A stretch of 64,000 nt of DNA from a virus (taxonomy: Duplodnaviria; Heunggongvirae; Uroviricota; Caudoviricetes). The notes under the pieces are model-generated. The model did not search any database and was not told where the DNA came from. It was given only the letters and a program-made list of their open reading frames with translations. Below, in pieces: positions 4,171 to 55,909 of this stretch (positions are counted from its first letter, which is position 1; each line of letters begins with the position of its first letter). Made by a program: the position numbers and the translations under genes. The stretch covers positions 109,277 to 173,276 of the IMG/VR virus record IMGVR_UViG_3300012286_000299, one strand, 5' to 3'.

Positions 4171-4953
4171 TATGGATTAATAGTAAATGAAGTATTATCA
4201 TATAGTCAAATGCACAAAAAATGGGGTATACCACAAGGTAAAAAAATCATTCTAACAACAGACCAAGACTTAATCAAAGATGGTGTACAACCTATTGATG
4301 ATGAGTTTTTAGAATGGTTTGTTAATAATCCAAGTTGTGAAAGTGTTGAGATTGAAGAATTATGTGGTGGATGTGGCAGTAATGATGGGGACTGTTGGAG
4401 AAGTAAAGAGTGTAATAAAGGGTATTATAAAAATAAATACAAAATAATCATTTCAAAAAAAGAACCTAAACAAGACATAAACACTTGTAAAAACTTTGAT
4501 AGAGAAATTGGTTGTGATTTAGCAGATTGTCTTTGTGAAAAAGAAGAACCTACTCAAGAACTAGCTAAAACAGAAATTGATTGGTCAGGTTTTCCAAAAT
4601 CAACACAAGAACAAGTTGGTTTTACTGAACCAAATATCATTGATGAATGGTTAGATAAAAATGGTAGTCCAGAAATTGCTAAACAAGTTGATGAAGAAGC
4701 AAAAGAGTTATGTGAACAAGAAACACTTGAAGAAGCTTTGGAAAGATTATCTTTAACAGATACTAAAAAATTAAGTATATTTTTAGATGGAATGAGGTAT
4801 CAACAAGAAAGAAGTTATAGTGAGGAAGAAGTTAAAATAATGTACAGAAGTTTATGGACTCCGAAGGATTTTGGGTTTTATAGTTCTTATGAAATGGAAA
4901 GTAATTTTGAAGACGATTTTAATTTATGGTTTGAACAATTTAAAAAGAAATAA
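4003..4953 (+). CDS. hypothetical Cys-rich protein (paralogue A of ORF 5706)
   Basis: ORF track. The N-terminal ~56 aa are near-identical to ORF 5706. Central CGGCGSNDGDCWRSKEC. Shares KEEPTQEL.KTEIDWSG with the paralogue. Confidence 0.7.
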   Translation: MKNIHIIPTTKSNKLYKNLLTDKLFILENSFMDVSECNREYQNIYITSDEEIKEGDYGLIVNEVLSYSQMHKKWGIPQGKKIILTTDQDLIKDGVQPIDDEFLEWFVNNPSCESVEIEELCGGCGSNDGDCWRSKECNKGYYKNKYKIIISKKEPKQDINTCKNFDREIGCDLADCLCEKEEPTQELAKTEIDWSGFPKSTQEQVGFTEPNIIDEWLDKNGSPEIAKQVDEEAKELCEQETLEEALERLSLTDTKKLSIFLDGMRYQQERSYSEEEVKIMYRSLWTPKDFGFYSSYEMESNFEDDFNLWFEQFKKK

Positions 4954-4954
4954 G

Positions 4955-5191
4955 ATGAAACAAACAGCAGTAGAATATTTAGAAAAAGAATTTAATACGT
5001 ATGGAACATTATTAAATGCTGATTTTATAAACGCAAAAGCAATGGAAAAGCAACAACAAGGCTATAGTGAAAATGAAGTTGAATTAATTGCTAATGAAAT
5101 GGTAAATTGGGCTATTGATAATATTGGTAATCCAAACCCTCAAAGTGGTAAAAAGTTTGATGAAGTTTTGGCTAAATATAAAAACAAATAA
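4955..5191 (+). CDS. hypothetical protein
   Basis: The ORF-track frame 4871-5191 was trimmed to the first non-overlapping ATG (MKQTAVEYL), 1 nt after the upstream stop. Confidence 0.55.
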   Translation: MKQTAVEYLEKEFNTYGTLLNADFINAKAMEKQQQGYSENEVELIANEMVNWAIDNIGNPNPQSGKKFDEVLAKYKNK

Positions 5192-5196
5192 AAATT

Positions 5197-5547
5197 ATGA
5201 AAACAGAAATTGCAGAATTAGAAATTAACCAACTAAAATCAGAAGGATTAAATTTTGATTATGAGTTTACACAAAAAAATTATCTTAATTACTTAAACTT
5301 GTGTATTGAAAAAGAAGGTTATGATATAAAAACAATTATATCAAAATTAAAACAAAATGAGAAAATTATTTTTTCACTTAATTTAGGTGATAACTTCAAT
5401 GGTTCAAAAGACCAAAAAAAAGGTAGCATTTATTGGAAACACCCACAATATGGTTTGTGCATTAGAGTTCAGTCAAGTGAAAAAAGTTTACAAGAATGGT
5501 CTTATGAATTAGAAAAAACATTTTCCTTAACTCCTTCTAACATATAA
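5197..5547 (+). CDS. hypothetical protein
   Basis: ORF track; no motif recognised. Confidence 0.6.
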   Translation: MKTEIAELEINQLKSEGLNFDYEFTQKNYLNYLNLCIEKEGYDIKTIISKLKQNEKIIFSLNLGDNFNGSKDQKKGSIYWKHPQYGLCIRVQSSEKSLQEWSYELEKTFSLTPSNI

Positions 5548-41718: not shown

Positions 41719-42327
41719 ATGGAAGTTAAAATCTACAGAGAGCCTGAAAATGAAGCTCTAATATTGGATGAAGAACAATTAGCAGAATATCATGAATTAA
41801 CTGCTGAGTTGGGTCTTCAAGTTGTTGATCAGCAAGAACAAAAAGTACCAAACGTTTATACATTTCTAAACTCTGCTATGACTAAACAATTACATGCTAT
41901 ATGTCCTAGACATTTAAAAGTGGAAGAGTATAAAAAATCTACTATACCTGTAGAGGTATTGAAAGTGTTAAAGTTTGCTAAAGAACAAAACATGTATGAA
42001 GGTTATGAAATTTGGTATAATGATGTTGAACCAGATCCACTGTTAATTGGATGGAATTATTCAAATGATAGAGCTAGAGAAAACAATTATGATTGGCAAA
42101 AAGATAGATTCTTAATGGCTCGTTGGGGTGATTGCGCTATGGAATTACCTGAATTACTACAAGTAGGATTTGATAAGTTAAAACAAGAATTAATTGATAA
42201 AGCTAAACAAGCCATATCAACTTGCAAATCAGTAATAGAAGACCCTGACATGTATGTTAGAAAAGTGTTGAGTGATCAATCTGCTAACATCGATTTAACT
42301 ACTACTTCATCAAACACAATTTATTAA
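41719..42327 (+). CDS. hypothetical protein
   Basis: ORF track. Confidence 0.6.
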   Translation: MEVKIYREPENEALILDEEQLAEYHELTAELGLQVVDQQEQKVPNVYTFLNSAMTKQLHAICPRHLKVEEYKKSTIPVEVLKVLKFAKEQNMYEGYEIWYNDVEPDPLLIGWNYSNDRARENNYDWQKDRFLMARWGDCAMELPELLQVGFDKLKQELIDKAKQAISTCKSVIEDPDMYVRKVLSDQSANIDLTTTSSNTIY

Positions 42328-42328
42328 T

Positions 42329-42925
42329 ATGAAATTCAAATCACAACAAGCTTTTAATTATCACGAATTAAAAGGGTTATATCCTTACATTAAAGGTACA
42401 AAAGGTTTTATAGCAGGAGGATGCTTCAAAGACATATTTGCAGGTAACAAAGCTAGAGACATTGATGTTTTCTTTGAAAATGAAAGCGACTATAAAAAGG
42501 CTGTAAAACTTTATAAAACCAAAAATAATTTTAAGAAAATATACTCAAACGACAACTGTACAGGGTATAGAGATCTTAAAAACAATGTTGGAGTTGAATT
42601 AGTTAAATCAATATTTGGAACACCTGAAGCGGTGTTGGAGCAATTCGATTTTACTATTGTAAAAGCAGCTTACTATAACCCACCTACAGACGAGCAAGAA
42701 ATTCAATTCATATTTCACCCTGACTTTTTTGAGCATTTGCTTCTTAAAAGATTAGTTTTAGATGATGCTATACCTAGAGCTGTAGCAACACTTAACAGAA
42801 GTTGGAAATATGCTGCTTATGGATTTGGGTTGTGTAGAGAAAGTAAAGTTAAATTATCAAATGAGATTATCAACAAAGGAGTTGTTGATGACATTAATGG
42901 AGATTTATATTTTGGATATGACTAA
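42329..42925 (+). CDS. divergent class-II nucleotidyltransferase (CCA/poly(A)-polymerase head-domain-like)
   Basis: AGGCFKDIFAGNKARDIDVFF (GGxxxD...DxD) and QFDFTIVKAAY (compare RRDFTINA). Confidence 0.55.
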   Translation: MKFKSQQAFNYHELKGLYPYIKGTKGFIAGGCFKDIFAGNKARDIDVFFENESDYKKAVKLYKTKNNFKKIYSNDNCTGYRDLKNNVGVELVKSIFGTPEAVLEQFDFTIVKAAYYNPPTDEQEIQFIFHPDFFEHLLLKRLVLDDAIPRAVATLNRSWKYAAYGFGLCRESKVKLSNEIINKGVVDDINGDLYFGYD

Positions 42926-43403
42926 TAAAATATATAGAATGTATGGGTTAGTTCCATACAATATTAGCCCAATTCAGCAAGCTATTCAATATGGACATGC
43001 AGTTGTTGAGTATTTGAACAGTTATTTTAATGAACCTGACTGTACTGAGTGGAGATTGAATGATAAAACATTTATTATCTTAAATGGGGGTACAACTAAC
43101 AAATCATATTCAGAGTTTGGTACATTAAATAAACATCAACAGACGTTAAAATTTGCTGGAGTACGTAATGCTAGTTTTTTTGAACCTGATTTAGGAAATC
43201 AATTAACAGCAGTTGTCTTCTTGGTTGATGAAAGAGTTTATGATAAAAAGATGTGGCCTGATTATAATGGGTTATGTTACATGGATGGAACACCTGATGA
43301 AACAGAGTATTATACTTGGAAAATGCAATTTGCTGAAACTGAAGAAGAAGTAAACCAAATATTATTTTTAAGAGATTTCTTAAAACAATTTAGATTGGCT
43401 TAA
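42918..43403 (+). CDS. PTH2-like (peptidyl-tRNA hydrolase 2 fold) protein, tentative
   Basis: The track frame 42810 was trimmed to the ATG at 42918. SPIQQAIQYGHAV and FFEPDLGNQLTAVVFLV resemble PTH2 blocks. Confidence 0.4.
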   Translation: MTNKIYRMYGLVPYNISPIQQAIQYGHAVVEYLNSYFNEPDCTEWRLNDKTFIILNGGTTNKSYSEFGTLNKHQQTLKFAGVRNASFFEPDLGNQLTAVVFLVDERVYDKKMWPDYNGLCYMDGTPDETEYYTWKMQFAETEEEVNQILFLRDFLKQFRLA

Positions 43404-43425
43404 CTAAAAATTCTTCGTATATTAA
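43395..43425 (+). promoter_or_regulatory. promoter, TTG-N20-TATATTAA
   Basis: TTG at 43395-43397 and a TTCGTATATT core. Precedes ORF 43443. Confidence 0.65.
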
Positions 43426-43442
43426 ATCAAAATTAAAAGGTT

Positions 43443-44180
43443 ATGCCAAAATTATTTAAAGTAGGAGGATGTGTTAGAGATAGGTTGCTAGGAGTAAAGA
43501 CAAAAGATATTGACTTTGTATTTGTTCTAGATGATCTAAACAAAACAGTTGAAGAAGGATTTCAAGAGATGAAATCTTGGATGGAGAATGAAGGATTTAC
43601 AATATTCCTATCAGTCCCTGAAATGTACACAATCAGAGCTAAATTCCCACCTGACCATAAATTCGCTAAATTAGATGCTGACTTTGTAATGGCTCGTAAA
43701 GAAACTGGTTATGAAGAAGGAACAAGACGTCCTGTTTTAGAATTAGGAACTCTTGAAGATGATTTGGTTCGTAGAGACTTCACAGTTAATGCTATGGCTG
43801 AGGATGAGGATGGAAACATTATTGATATGTTCAATGGATTAGAAGATTTAGATTTTATGTTACTTCGTACTCCATTAGATCCAAAAGATACATTCATGGA
43901 TGATCCTTTGAGAATCTTACGTGCATTGAGATTTGTAATTACAAAAGGATTTACAATGTACGTAGATGTTTGGGAAGCAATACAACAACCACACATCCTA
44001 GCCAAACTAACTCAAACTGTAAGCAGTGAGAGAATAAGAGAAGAGGTATTAAAGATGATGGCTGTAGATACTCCAAGAACAATTCGATTGTTAATAGATA
44101 TTGATAATGAAGTGCCAGGATTTTTAGAAGTAGTATTCAAAGAAGGATTGTGGTTAAAACCAACATTTGAAAAAATATAG
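43443..44180 (+). CDS. cca: tRNA nucleotidyltransferase (CCA-adding enzyme family), short form
   Basis: GGCVRDRLLGVKTKDIDFVF, RRDFTVNAMA, DPLRILRALRF. Confidence 0.88.
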   Translation: MPKLFKVGGCVRDRLLGVKTKDIDFVFVLDDLNKTVEEGFQEMKSWMENEGFTIFLSVPEMYTIRAKFPPDHKFAKLDADFVMARKETGYEEGTRRPVLELGTLEDDLVRRDFTVNAMAEDEDGNIIDMFNGLEDLDFMLLRTPLDPKDTFMDDPLRILRALRFVITKGFTMYVDVWEAIQQPHILAKLTQTVSSERIREEVLKMMAVDTPRTIRLLIDIDNEVPGFLEVVFKEGLWLKPTFEKI

Positions 44181-44182
44181 TT

Positions 44183-44404
44183 ATGGAGAATTTTAGATTA
44201 CAAGCACTAGAAAGACGTGCTGAGGAACTAGTATTGGAATTAAGGGAACAAGGATTAATCAATCCAGATTTTGAATTGATCGGAGCAATAATATTTAATA
44301 AGTATAAGGGCTCTGAAGATAGGTTTAATGACCTTATTGGTAATATTGTAGAATTGAGAAAAGAAGCAGAAGACTTCCTTAAAAAACTAAAAGATGATAA
44401 ATAA
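44183..44404 (+). CDS. small coiled-coil protein
   Basis: ORF track. Confidence 0.55.
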   Translation: MENFRLQALERRAEELVLELREQGLINPDFELIGAIIFNKYKGSEDRFNDLIGNIVELRKEAEDFLKKLKDDK

Positions 44405-44996
44405 TATAGAACAAATAAAAGGATTGCTTCATTTTGAAGCACCAGGTGATTTTTATATGTTATACGTTTTTAAACGTAAGAAAGATCAGCCTGAAGGTGA
44501 AAGAGATAATCATCAATCAGTACGAACAATTAAGACATACTGTATTGAAAGTATCGATCACTTGGAAAGACGTTATGATGAGATCATACAACTGTGTGAA
44601 ATGTTTAAAGCAAGAGCTTATATTCACGTACAGAAACAGAACCATGCAGATGTATCATTGGAAATGATGATGGCACTTGCTCAACGTATTAAGAACGGAC
44701 AGCCAAATCAAAAAGGTTTATTCGATTCTGTTGTAGGTCAAATCAAGACTCAAGAAAAGAGATGGATTGTTGACATTGATACAAAAGATTTTGACTATGT
44801 GAAGAATGTACATGACTTTATCAATACTTTACAACCTGCAGGGCATAAAACTGAAGCTATTGTACCTACTAAGAATGGTTGTCATTTAATTACTTGTAAG
44901 TTTAATGTAATGGAATTTGCAAAACAATTCCCGGATGTTGATATACAGAAAAAGAATCCAACTTTATTATACTATCCTGATAGTTTGGATTTTTAA
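44394..44996 (+). CDS. hypothetical protein (WIVDIDTKD ... VPTKNGCHLI; a faint AEP/prim-pol-like pattern, unverified)
   Basis: ORF track; motif resemblance only. Confidence 0.55.
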   Translation: MINNIEQIKGLLHFEAPGDFYMLYVFKRKKDQPEGERDNHQSVRTIKTYCIESIDHLERRYDEIIQLCEMFKARAYIHVQKQNHADVSLEMMMALAQRIKNGQPNQKGLFDSVVGQIKTQEKRWIVDIDTKDFDYVKNVHDFINTLQPAGHKTEAIVPTKNGCHLITCKFNVMEFAKQFPDVDIQKKNPTLLYYPDSLDF

Positions 44997-45015
44997 ATTA
45001 AACTTCGTATATTTA
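44985..45015 (+). promoter_or_regulatory. promoter, TTG-N20-TATATTTA
   Basis: TTG at 44985-44987 (inside the 3' end of ORF 44394) and a TTCGTATATTTA core. Precedes ORF 45038. Confidence 0.65.
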
Positions 45016-45037
45016 ATCAAATAAAAAGATAAAGGTT

Positions 45038-45490
45038 ATGAAATTAAAAGAAAAGTTATTTGCTGACTTCATCACAGCAATGAAAGCTAAAGATGAAGTA
45101 GCTAAATCTGCCTTAAGTAGTGTTAAAGCCAAAATTATTGAAGCTGAAAAAGCAGCTGGTAATTGGGAACCTACAGATAGTGAAGTGTTAAAGATTATAA
45201 TCAAAGCTATTAAACAACGTGAAGAATCACAAGCTATATTTTTTAGTTCAGGCAGGATTCAACTTTCAATAGACGAAGCCAATGAAGCATCTGTACTGAG
45301 AAATTATTTACCCCAACAAATGACTGAAGTTGAAATTGAAAATGCAATACGCACAATTTCATCTGATATAATTGGTGTTGTTAATAATATGCAGGCCCTG
45401 AAAGGTAAAGTTATTGGTGAATTCAATAAACAATATAATGGGCAAGCTGATATAAATTTGGTAAAGCAAATTGTAGAGCGTATATTATGA
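45038..45490 (+). CDS. GatB/YqeY-domain protein
   Basis: LKEKLFADFITAMKAKDEVAKSALSSVKAKI ... LRNYLPQQMTEVEIENAI ... NLVKQIVERIL. Confidence 0.75.
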   Translation: MKLKEKLFADFITAMKAKDEVAKSALSSVKAKIIEAEKAAGNWEPTDSEVLKIIIKAIKQREESQAIFFSSGRIQLSIDEANEASVLRNYLPQQMTEVEIENAIRTISSDIIGVVNNMQALKGKVIGEFNKQYNGQADINLVKQIVERIL

Positions 45491-51777: not shown

Positions 51778-52575
51778 ATGAGTTTAAAAGCATTATCAAA
51801 AGGGGAATTAGCAGCATTAGCTCCTCAAACATTCAATCATGAAATCGGTTCTAATTTAACTGATAAGTATGTTCATATTCCAACTGATACCATAGTTGAT
51901 GATATGGAAGCGTTAGGTTGGTTTCCGTATGATGTAAAAACAGTTAGAGCAAGAAAGAAAAATGCTCAAACTGCTAAACATTTAATTCAGTTTTTTAACC
52001 CAAATATTGTTATTAATAACGAAGAAGGTGAAGCTGATATGCACCCAACACTATTACTTATCAATTCACATGATGGCTCTACAGCGGTTAGATTTGAAAT
52101 GGGTGTGTTTAGAATGATTTGTGAAAATGGTTTAGTAATCAAATCACAGGATTTCGGTGGATTCAGAATGAGACACATGGGTTATACCTTTGAAGATTTA
52201 CGTCAGTACATTAATCAATTGGTTGAAACACTACCAACTGTAGTTGCTAACCTGAATAAGTTTTCACAAGTATTAATGACACCTGAGCAACAACACGATT
52301 TCGCTGTTAAAGCAGTTGCAGCTCGTTTTGGTGAAGATAAACAATTGTCAGATGAGGCTATTAAAGATTTATTATTAGCAGAACGTAAAGAGGATATTGG
52401 TGATAATGTTTGGGTTGTATTAAATCGTGTTCAAGAAAAATTAACAAGTGGTGGTTTTAGTTACTTGGGTGTTAAAGGTAAACCAAGAAAAGCACGAGCT
52501 GTTAAAAATTTCACACAGGATGTTGAAATGAACTCCAAATTGTGGGAATTAGCTGAAACATATTTAATTAACTAA
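51778..52575 (+). CDS. DUF932-family protein
   Basis: LLLINSHDGSTAVRFEMGVFRMICENGLV. Confidence 0.7.
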   Translation: MSLKALSKGELAALAPQTFNHEIGSNLTDKYVHIPTDTIVDDMEALGWFPYDVKTVRARKKNAQTAKHLIQFFNPNIVINNEEGEADMHPTLLLINSHDGSTAVRFEMGVFRMICENGLVIKSQDFGGFRMRHMGYTFEDLRQYINQLVETLPTVVANLNKFSQVLMTPEQQHDFAVKAVAARFGEDKQLSDEAIKDLLLAERKEDIGDNVWVVLNRVQEKLTSGGFSYLGVKGKPRKARAVKNFTQDVEMNSKLWELAETYLIN

Positions 52576-54943: not shown

Positions 54944-55132
54944 ATGATATTACAGGTAATTAACACCAAAAAGGAAAAACACAATCAAATTCGTACAACT
55001 AAGGAAACTTTATTTCAAGACCTTAAAACTCAAGGTTGGGCAGTCCAAGATTGTAAAGTAACAGAACTAAATGAGGCTTTAGTAAACACTGTATATCGTG
55101 GTACTGATGGTAAAAATTCATTAAAACGTTAA
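54944..55132 (+). CDS. hypothetical protein
   Basis: ORF track. Confidence 0.55.
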   Translation: MILQVINTKKEKHNQIRTTKETLFQDLKTQGWAVQDCKVTELNEALVNTVYRGTDGKNSLKR

Positions 55133-55135
55133 AAT

Positions 55136-55288
55136 ATGGTAGTATTATTAGCACAACTTGTATTAATGGGTATAAATTTATATCTAGCAAAAGTACAAAC
55201 AGAACAGGGTAGAAATCCAGCAATACAATATTTTGTTGCAGGAATGTGTTTTATGGGTGCAATTGATGCACTTATTAAATTACTTTAG
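55136..55288 (+). CDS. 50-aa membrane peptide (below cutoff)
   Basis: MVVLLAQLVLMGINLYLAK...FVAGMCFMGAIDALIKLL. Confidence 0.45.
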   Translation: MVVLLAQLVLMGINLYLAKVQTEQGRNPAIQYFVAGMCFMGAIDALIKLL

Positions 55289-55297
55289 TAAGGCAAT

Positions 55298-55366
55298 AGT
55301 CAGGTAGTGTAATGGTAGCACCCGGAGGTCACACTTCTAGAACAGGTTCGAATCCTGTCCTGACTA
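55298..55366 (+). tRNA. tRNA-like element 1 (69 nt, non-canonical; possible pseudo-tRNA, loop GUCACAC would read CAC/Val)
   Basis: Good acceptor stem AGTCAGG/CCTGACT, D arm GTGT-AATGGTA-GCAC and T arm ACAGG-TTCGAAT-CCTGT. Only 20 nt remain for position 26, the anticodon arm and the variable loop, and the best stem needs 2 G-U pairs and a C-A mismatch. No encoded CCA. Confidence 0.45.
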
Positions 55367-55367
55367 C
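55344..55367 (+). repeat. 24-nt exact direct repeat (copy 1): AGGTTCGAATCCTGTCCTGACTAC
   Basis: Identical to 55560-55583. It is the T arm plus 3' acceptor of both tRNA-like elements. Confidence 0.95.
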
Positions 55368-55482
55368 AAAGTAATGCCTGGCGAAGTTGTCAAAACCGGG
55401 ATGAAGCAGAATTGTAAATAAAACACGCGAGTGTATAATGACAGATGGGATACACAAAAGTTACAATTAGAATTACTTAAAC

Positions 55483-55582
55483 AGTCAGGTGGCACTGAAG
55501 GTAGAGTGCTCCATAAAATAAGCAATAAGTGGTAATATGGTACCAATACTTATAGCCTTAGGTTCGAATCCTGTCCTGACTA
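55483..55582 (+). tRNA. tRNA-like element 2 (100 nt) with a long internal hairpin in place of a normal anticodon/variable region
   Basis: Same acceptor stem and T loop as element 1. D arm GCAC-TGAAGGTAGA-GTGC (type-II-like). Local positions 40-74 (55522-55556) fold into a ~13-bp interrupted hairpin (ATAAGT/ACTTAT plus TGGTA/TACCA). No encoded CCA. Confidence 0.4.
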
Positions 55583-55583
55583 C
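55560..55583 (+). repeat. 24-nt exact direct repeat (copy 2)
   Basis: See 55344-55367. Confidence 0.95.
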
Positions 55584-55592
55584 TATAACAAT

Positions 55593-55615
55593 ATAAGTGT
55601 TTCATAACCACTTAT
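55593..55615 (+). terminator. hairpin after tRNA-like element 2
   Basis: ATAAGTG tttcataac CACTTAT followed by TATTTTT. Confidence 0.5.
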
Positions 55616-55637
55616 TATTTTTAATTATGCCCGTAAT

Positions 55638-55655
55638 TAGCCCCGAAAGGGGCTA
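55638..55655 (+). terminator. hairpin terminator
   Basis: TAGCCCC GAAA GGGGCTA followed by TTACTTTATTT. Confidence 0.65.
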
Positions 55656-55664
55656 TTACTTTAT

Positions 55665-55695
55665 TTGGAGGGTATAAATTAAATTCGTATATTTA
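55665..55695 (+). promoter_or_regulatory. cassette promoter (TTGGAGGGTATAAATTAAATTCGTATATTT)
   Basis: Extended right-arm consensus. Precedes ORF 55712. Confidence 0.6.
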
Positions 55696-55711
55696 TTACA
55701 AATAAAATAAA

Positions 55712-55849
55712 ATGAAAGTAGTACAATTCACATTACAGGAAAGATGGGCTGCATCAAAGCACATGGTTCAAAAGAACAAGAAAAAATACAATAGGGAAAA
55801 AGATAAAAGAGAAAATAGGGAGGCTGGTAAGTCTCCTTACTTCATTTAA
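55712..55849 (+). CDS. 45-aa basic peptide (below cutoff)
   Basis: Promoter-driven. MKVVQFTLQERWAASKHMVQKNKKKYNREKDKRENREAGKSPYFI. Confidence 0.45.
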   Translation: MKVVQFTLQERWAASKHMVQKNKKKYNREKDKRENREAGKSPYFI

Positions 55850-55878
55850 TATATTTATAAGGGTCCTTATTTAGTTTC

Positions 55879-55909
55879 TTTGAGTGTTTAAAACTAATTC
55901 GTATATTAA
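55879..55909 (+). promoter_or_regulatory. cassette promoter
   Basis: TTTGAGTG...AATTCGTATATTAAAGTATAATTAA. Precedes ORF 55933. Confidence 0.6.

Follow-up and report, generated by a model that had tools for sequence, protein, structure and literature searches.

A family of phage tRNA-like elements with a shared chassis and exchangeable centres

The phage DNA analysed here is a stretch of 64,000 nucleotides (nt) from IMG/VR record IMGVR_UViG_3300012286_000299 (positions 109,277 to 173,276); the whole stretch is referred to as the window. The phage is distantly T4-like and has a low GC content (~29%). Two transfer RNA (tRNA)-like RNA genes, E1 and E2, lie in tandem on the + strand. E1 occupies 55298-55366 (69 nt through the discriminator base, A73), with C74 at 55367; E2 occupies 55483-55582 (100 nt), with C74 at 55583. 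The spacer between them (55368-55482, +) is 115 nt long. In each element, a 7-base-pair (bp) acceptor stem and its discriminator are combined with a D arm that has G18G19 and a T arm of the GTTCRANYC type. The first 8 nt (AGTCAGGT) and the last 24 nt (AGGTTCGAATCCTGTCCTGACTAC; 55344-55367 in E1, 55560-55583 in E2) are common to both. CCA is encoded in neither; the letters after A73 are CAA in E1 and CTA in E2. The identical ends, the two lengths and the missing CCA had been noticed in a preliminary description of this locus, and all are confirmed.

In E1, the acceptor 5' strand (55298-55304) is followed by a type-I D arm (55307-55321, GTGT/AATGGTA/GCAC), the centre (55322-55341), the T arm (55342-55358) and the acceptor 3' strand (55359-55365), with A73 at 55366 and an A at position 48. 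The D arm and T arm are separated by the 20 nt counted previously, and the variable loop has 2-3 nt. The centre contains a mini-hairpin (55324-55338, +; GGAGGT CAC ACTTCT) with the core GGAGGTCACACTTC. In E2, the acceptor 5' strand (55483-55489) leads into a D arm with a long stem (55492-55509, GCAC/TGAAGGTAGA/GTGC). The 48-nt centre (55510-55557) consists of ~11 A-rich unpaired nt and then a 10-bp interrupted hairpin (55522-55556, +; ATAAGT+GGTA / TACC+ACTTAT, 6-nt loop). It is followed by a T arm (55558-55574) whose TTAGG/CCTGT stem has 4 pairs only, the acceptor 3' strand (55575-55581) and A73 (55582). An alternative stem in E2, CCATA (55511-55515) with TATGG (55536-55540), encloses 20 nt, as had been proposed. 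Unconstrained folding gives E1 and E2 the same plan of acceptor stem, D arm, T arm and a single central hairpin, with folding z-scores of -1.3 for E1 and -2.3 for E2; both D arms and the E2 hairpin of the preliminary description are recovered in this way.

Over the whole window, ARAGORN reports a single gene, which is E1, as 'tRNA-???' with a 6-nt loop and a 2-base anticodon; E2 is not called. With the Rfam tRNA model (RF00005; gathering score 29), E1 reaches 44.8 bits, the anticodon arm being taken as a local end: Infernal skips the arm, which has 16 nt where the model has 18. For E2, RF00005 gives no match at E<=10, and in E-value mode Rfam finds nothing credible besides E1 in 55000-55900. 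Canonical tRNA genes were found nowhere in the window by ARAGORN or Rfam, and both E1 and E2 lack a canonical 5-bp/7-nt anticodon arm. Two ordinary high-scoring tRNAs, the outcome that the preliminary description had named as speaking against it, were not obtained, because ARAGORN and Rfam give E1 without a usable anticodon arm and give nothing for E2.

The frame shared by E1 and E2, referred to here as the chassis, has three parts: the acceptor stem AGUCAGG/CCUGACU, continued by A73 and C74; a D arm containing G18G19; and the T arm ACAGGUUCGAAUCCUGU. In the window there are exactly two copies of the 22-mer GGTTCGAATCCTGTCCTGACTA, a number that does not rise with up to 3 mismatches; 100 shuffled sequences contained none. 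A regular expression tolerating <=6 mismatches finds the same two chassis copies, both on the + strand and 115 nt apart. Beyond the window, the 22-mer matches at least 120 IMG/VR contigs, many of which have 2-6 copies, and the chassis elements are often within or beside tRNA arrays. A relaxed search of 1.2 Mb of fetched loci gave 237 copies (183 unique elements) in 139 loci; L-numbers below are the labels of compared loci or contigs. A member is defined as an element that begins with AGTCAGG(T), continues with a D arm, ends in ACAGGTTCGAATCCTGTCCTGACTA plus a C, and shares the strand of any neighbouring copies. The consensus is AGTCAGG-TG-(D arm)-(centre)-T-ACAGGTTCGAATCCTGT-CCTGACT-A-C, and the D arm is mostly of tRNA-Leu type, GGCGGAAT(T)GGTAGACGC (GGCGGAAUUGGUAGACGC). 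Total element length is 54-196 nt (median 105). Copies within a locus are co-oriented (0/139 loci have elements on both strands), and the genomes bearing them span 25-53% GC. E1 matches the family chassis exactly, with 0 mismatches; E2 has 2 mismatches against the 25-nt 3' chassis, both at positions 49-50. Both are almost certainly members of the family. The names which ARAGORN gives to chassis elements are arbitrary, and include tRNA-Pro(agg), tRNA-Cys(gca), tRNA-Glu(ctc) and tRNA-Pyl (L009, L001, L015 and others). Some members have an additional hairpin inserted in the D loop (L022, L049, L116 and others).

The chassis is maintained as an RNA structure. Covariation was tested on 54 distinct chassis variants over the 12 acceptor and T-stem pairs, with 500 shuffles and slid controls. 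Stem positions are paired in 96.8% of cases across these variants. Compensatory double changes are found in 8/12 pairs, compared with 1.3+-0.9 in the shuffled sets; this number was reached by 0/500 shuffles, and the slid controls collapse. Compensated stems include AGTTAGG/CCTAACT (the L142 group), GTTCAGG/CCTGAAC and ACAAG/CTTGT. Positions involved in the tRNA tertiary fold are also kept: U8 (176/183), A14 (162/183), A15 (161/183), U48 (156/183) and G18G19. A73 is present in 180/183 elements and C74 in 179/183. The 5' leader has a preferred sequence, with T(-1) in 147/182 (81%), A(-2) in 131 (72%) and A(-4) in 126 (69%); leaders of this type fit known good bacterial RNase P substrates. Canonical tRNAs of phages at the same loci resemble the chassis at the 3' end, where 217/235 end in C (3' ends as printed by ARAGORN), as if C followed the discriminator. 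Their acceptor stems vary freely, as in the listed tRNA-Leu genes. The chassis itself is identical in 122/237 copies, a near-invariance which exceeds the needs of folding, because the canonical tRNAs of the same phages have freely varying acceptor stems.

In cellular genomes (one genome for each of 185,579 species), the 22-mer has 18 matches, all in contigs of metagenome-assembled genomes (MAGs), many of which are binned with Bacteroidota; no isolate genome among the 185,579 has it. The chassis is absent from all 50,697 GenBank phage records, and a blastn search with 55250-55660 against all GenBank phages gave no match. By the look of the MAG and contig sources, the family is carried by uncultivated phages, mostly from freshwater. 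Tenacibaculum phage pT24 (L141, NC_049383) has only a degenerate chassis look-alike. Two near-identical 'tRNA-Undet' genes of pT24 (4790-4868 and 5157-5235) have an extended anticodon stem (CGCGGGTATATTACCCTCG); these are aberrant tRNAs of a different kind, from a cultured phage of Bacteroidota. In the literature searched, neither the family nor its sequence was found described. Fremin et al. 2023 (PMC10690425) reported a few tRNA-like candidate RNAs from IMG/VR, and this architecture is not described there.

The centres are as diverse as the chassis is constant. They range from 20 to >130 nt, and the 183 unique elements fall into 160 unrelated clusters. Within a centre type, identity is 0.76-1.0, as against about 0.35-0.6 in the flanks, and one sub-family has compensatory pairs in a centre helix which starts directly after position 26. 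The GC content of the centres is ~41%, independent of that of the genome (r=0.14). Eight contigs of ~52% GC (L022, L051, L066, L077, L096, L105, L108 and L115) have six unrelated centres at one locus; the flanks are orthologous (91% identity over the 300 nt upstream), and identity in the 3' chassis is 99%. L115 (52% GC) and L039 (28% GC) have a 133-nt element in common, with centres 90% identical and unrelated flanks. In close relatives of L142, whole elements differ in presence, absence and order, with breakpoints in the chassis. Centre types are thus conserved units which are found in unrelated contexts, are swapped at a fixed locus among close phages, and show rapid turnover. The preliminary description called the centres of E1 and E2 aberrant. 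They have no normal anticodon arm, but the centre is a conserved, horizontally exchanged, hypervariable cassette, and for that reason it is probably functional rather than just aberrant.

Several roles for the centres were considered and rejected. Among the 183 centres there is no excess of antisense matches to E. coli 16S/23S ribosomal RNA (rRNA; rrsB/rrlB, L140), and such matches are depleted. Sense 10-12-mers common to the centres and 16S/23S exceed dinucleotide shuffles ~2-fold (k=10: 71 vs 42.8+-7.2); this excess probably reflects shared RNA motifs or composition, because homologous centres match different rRNA sites. With antisense matches depleted and the weak sense signal inconsistent among homologous centres, an rRNA guide or mimic is rejected. 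Antisense regulation of targets within the window is rejected as well, as reverse-complement matches occur at about the sense-control rate. A second T arm (stem + TTCGANN + stem) is not a common module of the centres; a T-arm-like hairpin is found there in only ~7/183 elements, where 0.75 are expected by chance.

The E1-type centre is found in 8 other contigs (L010, L142-L147). Its core is identical in distant phages (L010, L142 and L144), and the L142 group of this type carries a compensatory change in the acceptor stem. No relative of the E2 centre type or of the E2 D arm was found in IMG/VR or in metagenome contigs. The spacer between E1 and E2 has a promoter-like site on the + strand (TTGTAA at 55412-55417, 16 nt, TATAAT at 55434-55439), and an inverted repeat (GTGTAT at 55431-55436 and ATACAC at 55450-55455, +) overlaps the TATAAT-type site. 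This spacer is 83-84% identical to L142 7910-8020 (-) and L091 7-97 (-), and the TATAAT-type site inside the inverted repeat is conserved; the repeat could be an operator. One spacer is common to the window, L142, L143, L145, L146 and L147, where elements of different types flank it. The E1 type is downstream of the spacer in L142, not upstream, and the L091 and L142 spacers separate other chassis types. Downstream of E2 is a hairpin resembling an intrinsic terminator (55638-55655, +; TAGCCCCGAAAGGGGCTA followed by a T-rich tail). For two flanking proteins of the window, no relatives were found in IMG/VR and an exact-protein lookup was empty. In the ~52% GC group of eight contigs, positions -12 to -5, counted from A1, read TATATTTG. 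This fits TAnnTTTG, the -7 promoter motif of Bacteroidota, and suggests for these contigs a transcription start at or near A1 and a Bacteroidota host.

All large open reading frames (ORFs) of the window are on the same strand as the elements. A tRNA-metabolism gene cluster lies at 42329-45490, ~11-13 kb upstream of E1 at the nucleotidyltransferase genes, and includes the pair of CCA enzymes mentioned in the preliminary description. These are a CCA-adding type tRNA nucleotidyltransferase (43443-44180, +; Pfam PolyA_pol 7.5e-20, PHROG tRNA nucleotidyltransferase 4e-68), which is likely the 3'-end maturation enzyme for RNAs ending at C74, and a second nucleotidyltransferase-like ORF (42329-42925, +). 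The cluster also contains an overlapping hydrolase-like ORF (42810-43403) and a YqeY/GatB-like ORF (45038-45490), labelled 'tRNA amidotransferase' in PHROGs. In other phages, homologues of the 42329-42925 and 45038-45490 ORFs adjoin chassis elements; the L029 homologue of the former (64% identical) is ~200 nt downstream of one. A 202-aa ORF (41719-42327) belongs to no Pfam or PHROG family, and its homologues (28-56%) lie within ~1 kb of chassis elements in L054, L044 and L064. The ORF found most often near chassis elements encodes DUF932 (51778-52575 in the window; 15/139 loci, 40-45% identity), followed by terminase (13/139) and GIY-YIG endonuclease (12/139). The tRNA-metabolism genes near chassis elements recur only sporadically.

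E1 and E2 are best read as stable, non-decoding tRNA-like RNAs in which the chassis serves biogenesis and the exchangeable centre is a specificity domain; our confidence in this reading is evenly balanced. Each gene would be transcribed from its own or an upstream promoter, and RNase P would remove the 5' leader. The 3' end would be trimmed to C74 and completed by the CCA-adding enzyme encoded in the window. The preliminary description had proposed acceptor/T-arm mimics, and this part of it fits the anatomy insofar as the elements look like substrates of RNase P, RNase Z and CCA enzymes: the leader has T(-1), A(-2) and A(-4), A73 and C74 are kept, and the phage has a CCA enzyme of its own. The product would be a stable L-shaped RNA which is unable to decode codons. 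The chassis may provide maturation, stability and recognition, and its repeated identical sequence may also be a homologous-recombination handle for the exchange of cassettes. The centre would act in trans as the specificity domain; most likely it would bind a protein, or serve as a decoy for one, in conflict between phage and host or between phages. A wider proposal, in which hundreds of RNA cassettes on one tRNA chassis form a shared pool of conflict specificity determinants and thus a new modular RNA system, is more doubtful and is put forward tentatively.

A number of observations weigh against the non-decoding specificity-domain reading. Transcription, RNase P cleavage, 3' trimming and CCA completion are all inferred. 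The centres fold only slightly better than random sequences (mean z -0.64 vs -0.32). At the gathering threshold, Rfam finds only tRNA in 126 kb of loci, and no known aptamer family. Antisense targets of the E1 and E2 centres within the window are only 10-11-mers, at about the sense-control rate. ORF clustering of the 139 loci gives no universally linked protein which could be an obligate partner. E2 is an atypical member: its 4-bp T stem is weak, it lacks A14, it has C at -1, and no relatives of it were found. The high identity within centre types could in part be due to recent transfer rather than selection. Finally, the chassis is not exclusive to non-decoding RNAs, because some copies carry perfect anticodon arms: L039 has a Lys-UUU (66 bits) and L066 an Ile-UAU. 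The body of the latter (L066 4958-5031, tRNA-Ile(UAU)) is identical to that of tRNA-Ile(UAU) in L009 (8-81, -), and its acceptor stem has been swapped, from GCTCTCG/CGGGAGT in L009 to the chassis-type AGTCAGG/CTTGACT.

The rival explanation which survives best, and which is still an unlikely one, is that activity resides in the acceptor, T arm and elbow, which would work as a decoy or competitor. The centre would then be merely non-decoding and uncleavable, and hence free to vary. Possible targets are tRNA-targeting defence nucleases, nucleotidyltransferase toxins, an aminoacyl-tRNA synthetase such as LeuRS, EF-Tu, and processing enzymes. A chassis which is invariant in nucleotide sequence around freely varying, only weakly structured centres is what this explanation predicts, and several copies per genome would raise the dosage. 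The LeuRS of E. coli needs A73 and elements of the tertiary core (A14, A15:U48 and the placement of G18G19), and does not need the anticodon. A73, A15:U48 and the Leu-type D arm GGCGGAAUUGGUAGACGC are kept in most members; the D arms of E1 and E2 are not of Leu type, E1 has A48, and E2 is without A14. Nucleases directed at the anticodon arm drive anticodon-arm changes in phage tRNAs (PMC12445682), which also agrees with a decoy. However, centre types are far better conserved than their flanks and show compensatory changes, the E1 core is identical in distant phages, and the swapping of centres at a fixed locus looks like selection on the centre itself. In addition, the elements copy no specific host tRNA, because the acceptor/T-arm sequence is in no cellular genome other than in the 18 MAG-contig matches.

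It is distinctly less probable that E1 and E2 are tRNAs which work despite an unusual form. The anticodon stem of E1, as a tRNA-Val(CAC), would be weakened (for example, to resist anticodon-stem nucleases) and its variable loop short, and E2 would have an intron or a very long extra arm. A35, C36 and A73 are identity elements for ValRS, and E1 has A73 and a loop, GUCACAC, in which the anticodon CAC stands between U33 and A37; the L010 homologue is named tRNA-Val(cac) by ARAGORN. The good tRNAs on the chassis in L039 and L066 also favour this explanation, as do functional phage tRNAs with shortened anticodon stems (PMC12445682). The GUCACAC arm of the preliminary description can indeed be drawn as a weak arm, but its outer stem pairs do not covary among four homologues. 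They are mismatched differently in each (C.A, G.G and G.G in the window, L010 and L144), and a G32-C38 pair can close the loop to 5 nt. Infernal must skip the arm, and a decoder of GUG would be an odd need for a 29% GC phage; real decoding by E1 is unlikely. E2 has no 5-bp/7-nt arm at all. Its sole ARAGORN solution with introns allowed (-i) is Thr(GGU) with a 13-nt insert at 34/35, a non-canonical site. When ARAGORN -i was run on all 183 elements, it returned 24 'isotypes' with scattered intron positions and lengths. The earlier suggestion of tRNAs with a small insertion or intron fails on these incoherent calls, and intron-bearing tRNAs are rejected for the family; group I introns are rejected too, as the inserts are far too short.

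A slightly weaker candidate is RNA-processing punctuation of the kind provided by the 't-elements' of plant mitochondria, in which the fold would only recruit RNase P and RNase Z to cut polycistronic transcripts and set mRNA ends, and the excised RNA would have no function. The co-orientation of the copies in all 139 loci and the single strand of the large ORFs in the window suit this explanation, and the leader is RNase P-friendly. The positions suit it too: E1 starts 10 nt past the stop codon of the ORF at 55136-55288, and in the 52% GC group the element is ~30 nt upstream of the ATG of the next gene. Punctuation does not explain why particular centres are conserved and shared horizontally, or why the chassis sequence is invariant. 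Nor does it account for a tandem pair that has a promoter and terminator of its own, as in the window, or for clustering in tRNA arrays.

The least probable of these explanations is selfish or neutral DNA, either as tRNA-derived repeats which spread without an RNA function, possibly aided by homing endonucleases in tRNA regions, or as tRNA pseudogenes homogenised by gene conversion: the same element does occur in unrelated flanks and very different GC backgrounds, deletion and shuffling occur between chassis copies, and GIY-YIG genes are present in 12 loci, but RNA stems are maintained by compensatory changes, conservation extends to the tRNA tertiary positions and to the signals in leader and trailer, and a copy-and-paste mobile element would bring one centre, not ~160. 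The decayed tRNA genes of the preliminary description are not supported: the ends which E1 and E2 share belong to an invariant chassis present in at least 237 copies, in over half of them (122/237) identical, with paired stems and 8/12 compensated pairs, and the E1 core is conserved. Host tRNA mimicry and an attP core are rejected, as the 22-mer is absent from isolate genomes.

The chassis family would be a kind of phage tRNA-like stable RNA; among known RNAs, species 1 and 2 of T4 (rnaC and rnaD) come nearest to it. To our knowledge, no function has been known for these RNAs for 50 years. They are phage-encoded, non-decoding stable RNAs of about 120-140 nt which lie among tRNA genes, and at its 3' end rnaC has a T arm of tRNA type (CCGGGTTCGAATCCCGG) and, after it, a tail resembling an acceptor. 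In sequence, neither resembles the chassis: on inspection by eye, the generic T loop is all that rnaC has in common with it, and the 5' half of rnaC has no obvious D arm. They are also two fixed genes, not a multi-copy invariant frame with exchangeable centres.

In the engineered tRNA scaffold, which serves to produce recombinant RNAs, and in the tRNA-miRNA-encoded RNAs (TMERs) of murine gammaherpesvirus 68 (MHV68), a cargo RNA replaces or is linked to the anticodon region of a tRNA body, and the cargo gains RNase P/RNase Z processing and stability. By analogy, this may be the architecture of the chassis elements. The scaffold, however, is man-made, and the MHV68 TMERs are an RNA polymerase III unit of a eukaryotic virus with the cargo 3' of the tRNA. 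No natural library of a bacterial virus with cargo inside a tRNA frame was found in the literature searched.

Other known RNAs resemble the chassis elements in part. Defence nucleases which target tRNA include PrrC, PARIS AriB, retron effectors and P2 OLD. Phage tRNAs with altered anticodon arms evade tRNA-targeting nucleases (PMC12445682); like the chassis elements they are phage-encoded, are found in tRNA arrays, and have an anticodon-arm region under arms-race selection. They differ in that they still decode and have normal 7-nt loops, whereas most chassis elements (E2, and probably E1) are without a usable arm. Transfer-messenger RNA (tmRNA) combines an acceptor and T-arm domain like that of tRNA with a large insertion where the anticodon arm would be. 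The chassis elements have U3-A70 instead of G3.U70, no tag reading frame, and mutually unrelated centres down to 20 nt, the length in E1; ARAGORN makes no tmRNA call, and tmRNA is ruled out. YrlA is a non-coding RNA, also found in phages, with an elbow module of tRNA-like D and T arms; its ends lie in the Ro-binding stem, and its 'acceptor' is closed by a loop. In the chassis elements, unlike in YrlA, the ends form an acceptor stem, and Rfam finds no YrlA match in the window or in the family loci. In no known system compared here does an invariant frame go together with unrelated inserts from a shared pool.

The family has a practical consequence for virome studies: tRNA counts and codon-usage analyses are contaminated, because tRNA finders give the chassis genes random anticodons. 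Phage tRNA genes are now known as weapons against host defences which cleave tRNA. The family bears the signature of a conflict system: its frame is invariant, its inserts are hypervariable and pass horizontally between phages, and sister phages differ in the insert at one locus. If the inserts bind factors of the host or of rival phages, they would be a new RNA-based layer of phage counter-defence, and also a ready-made natural library of functional RNAs embedded in tRNA. Should the more tentative reading as a shared pool of cassettes be true, the family would be the natural counterpart of the laboratory tRNA-scaffold aptamer.

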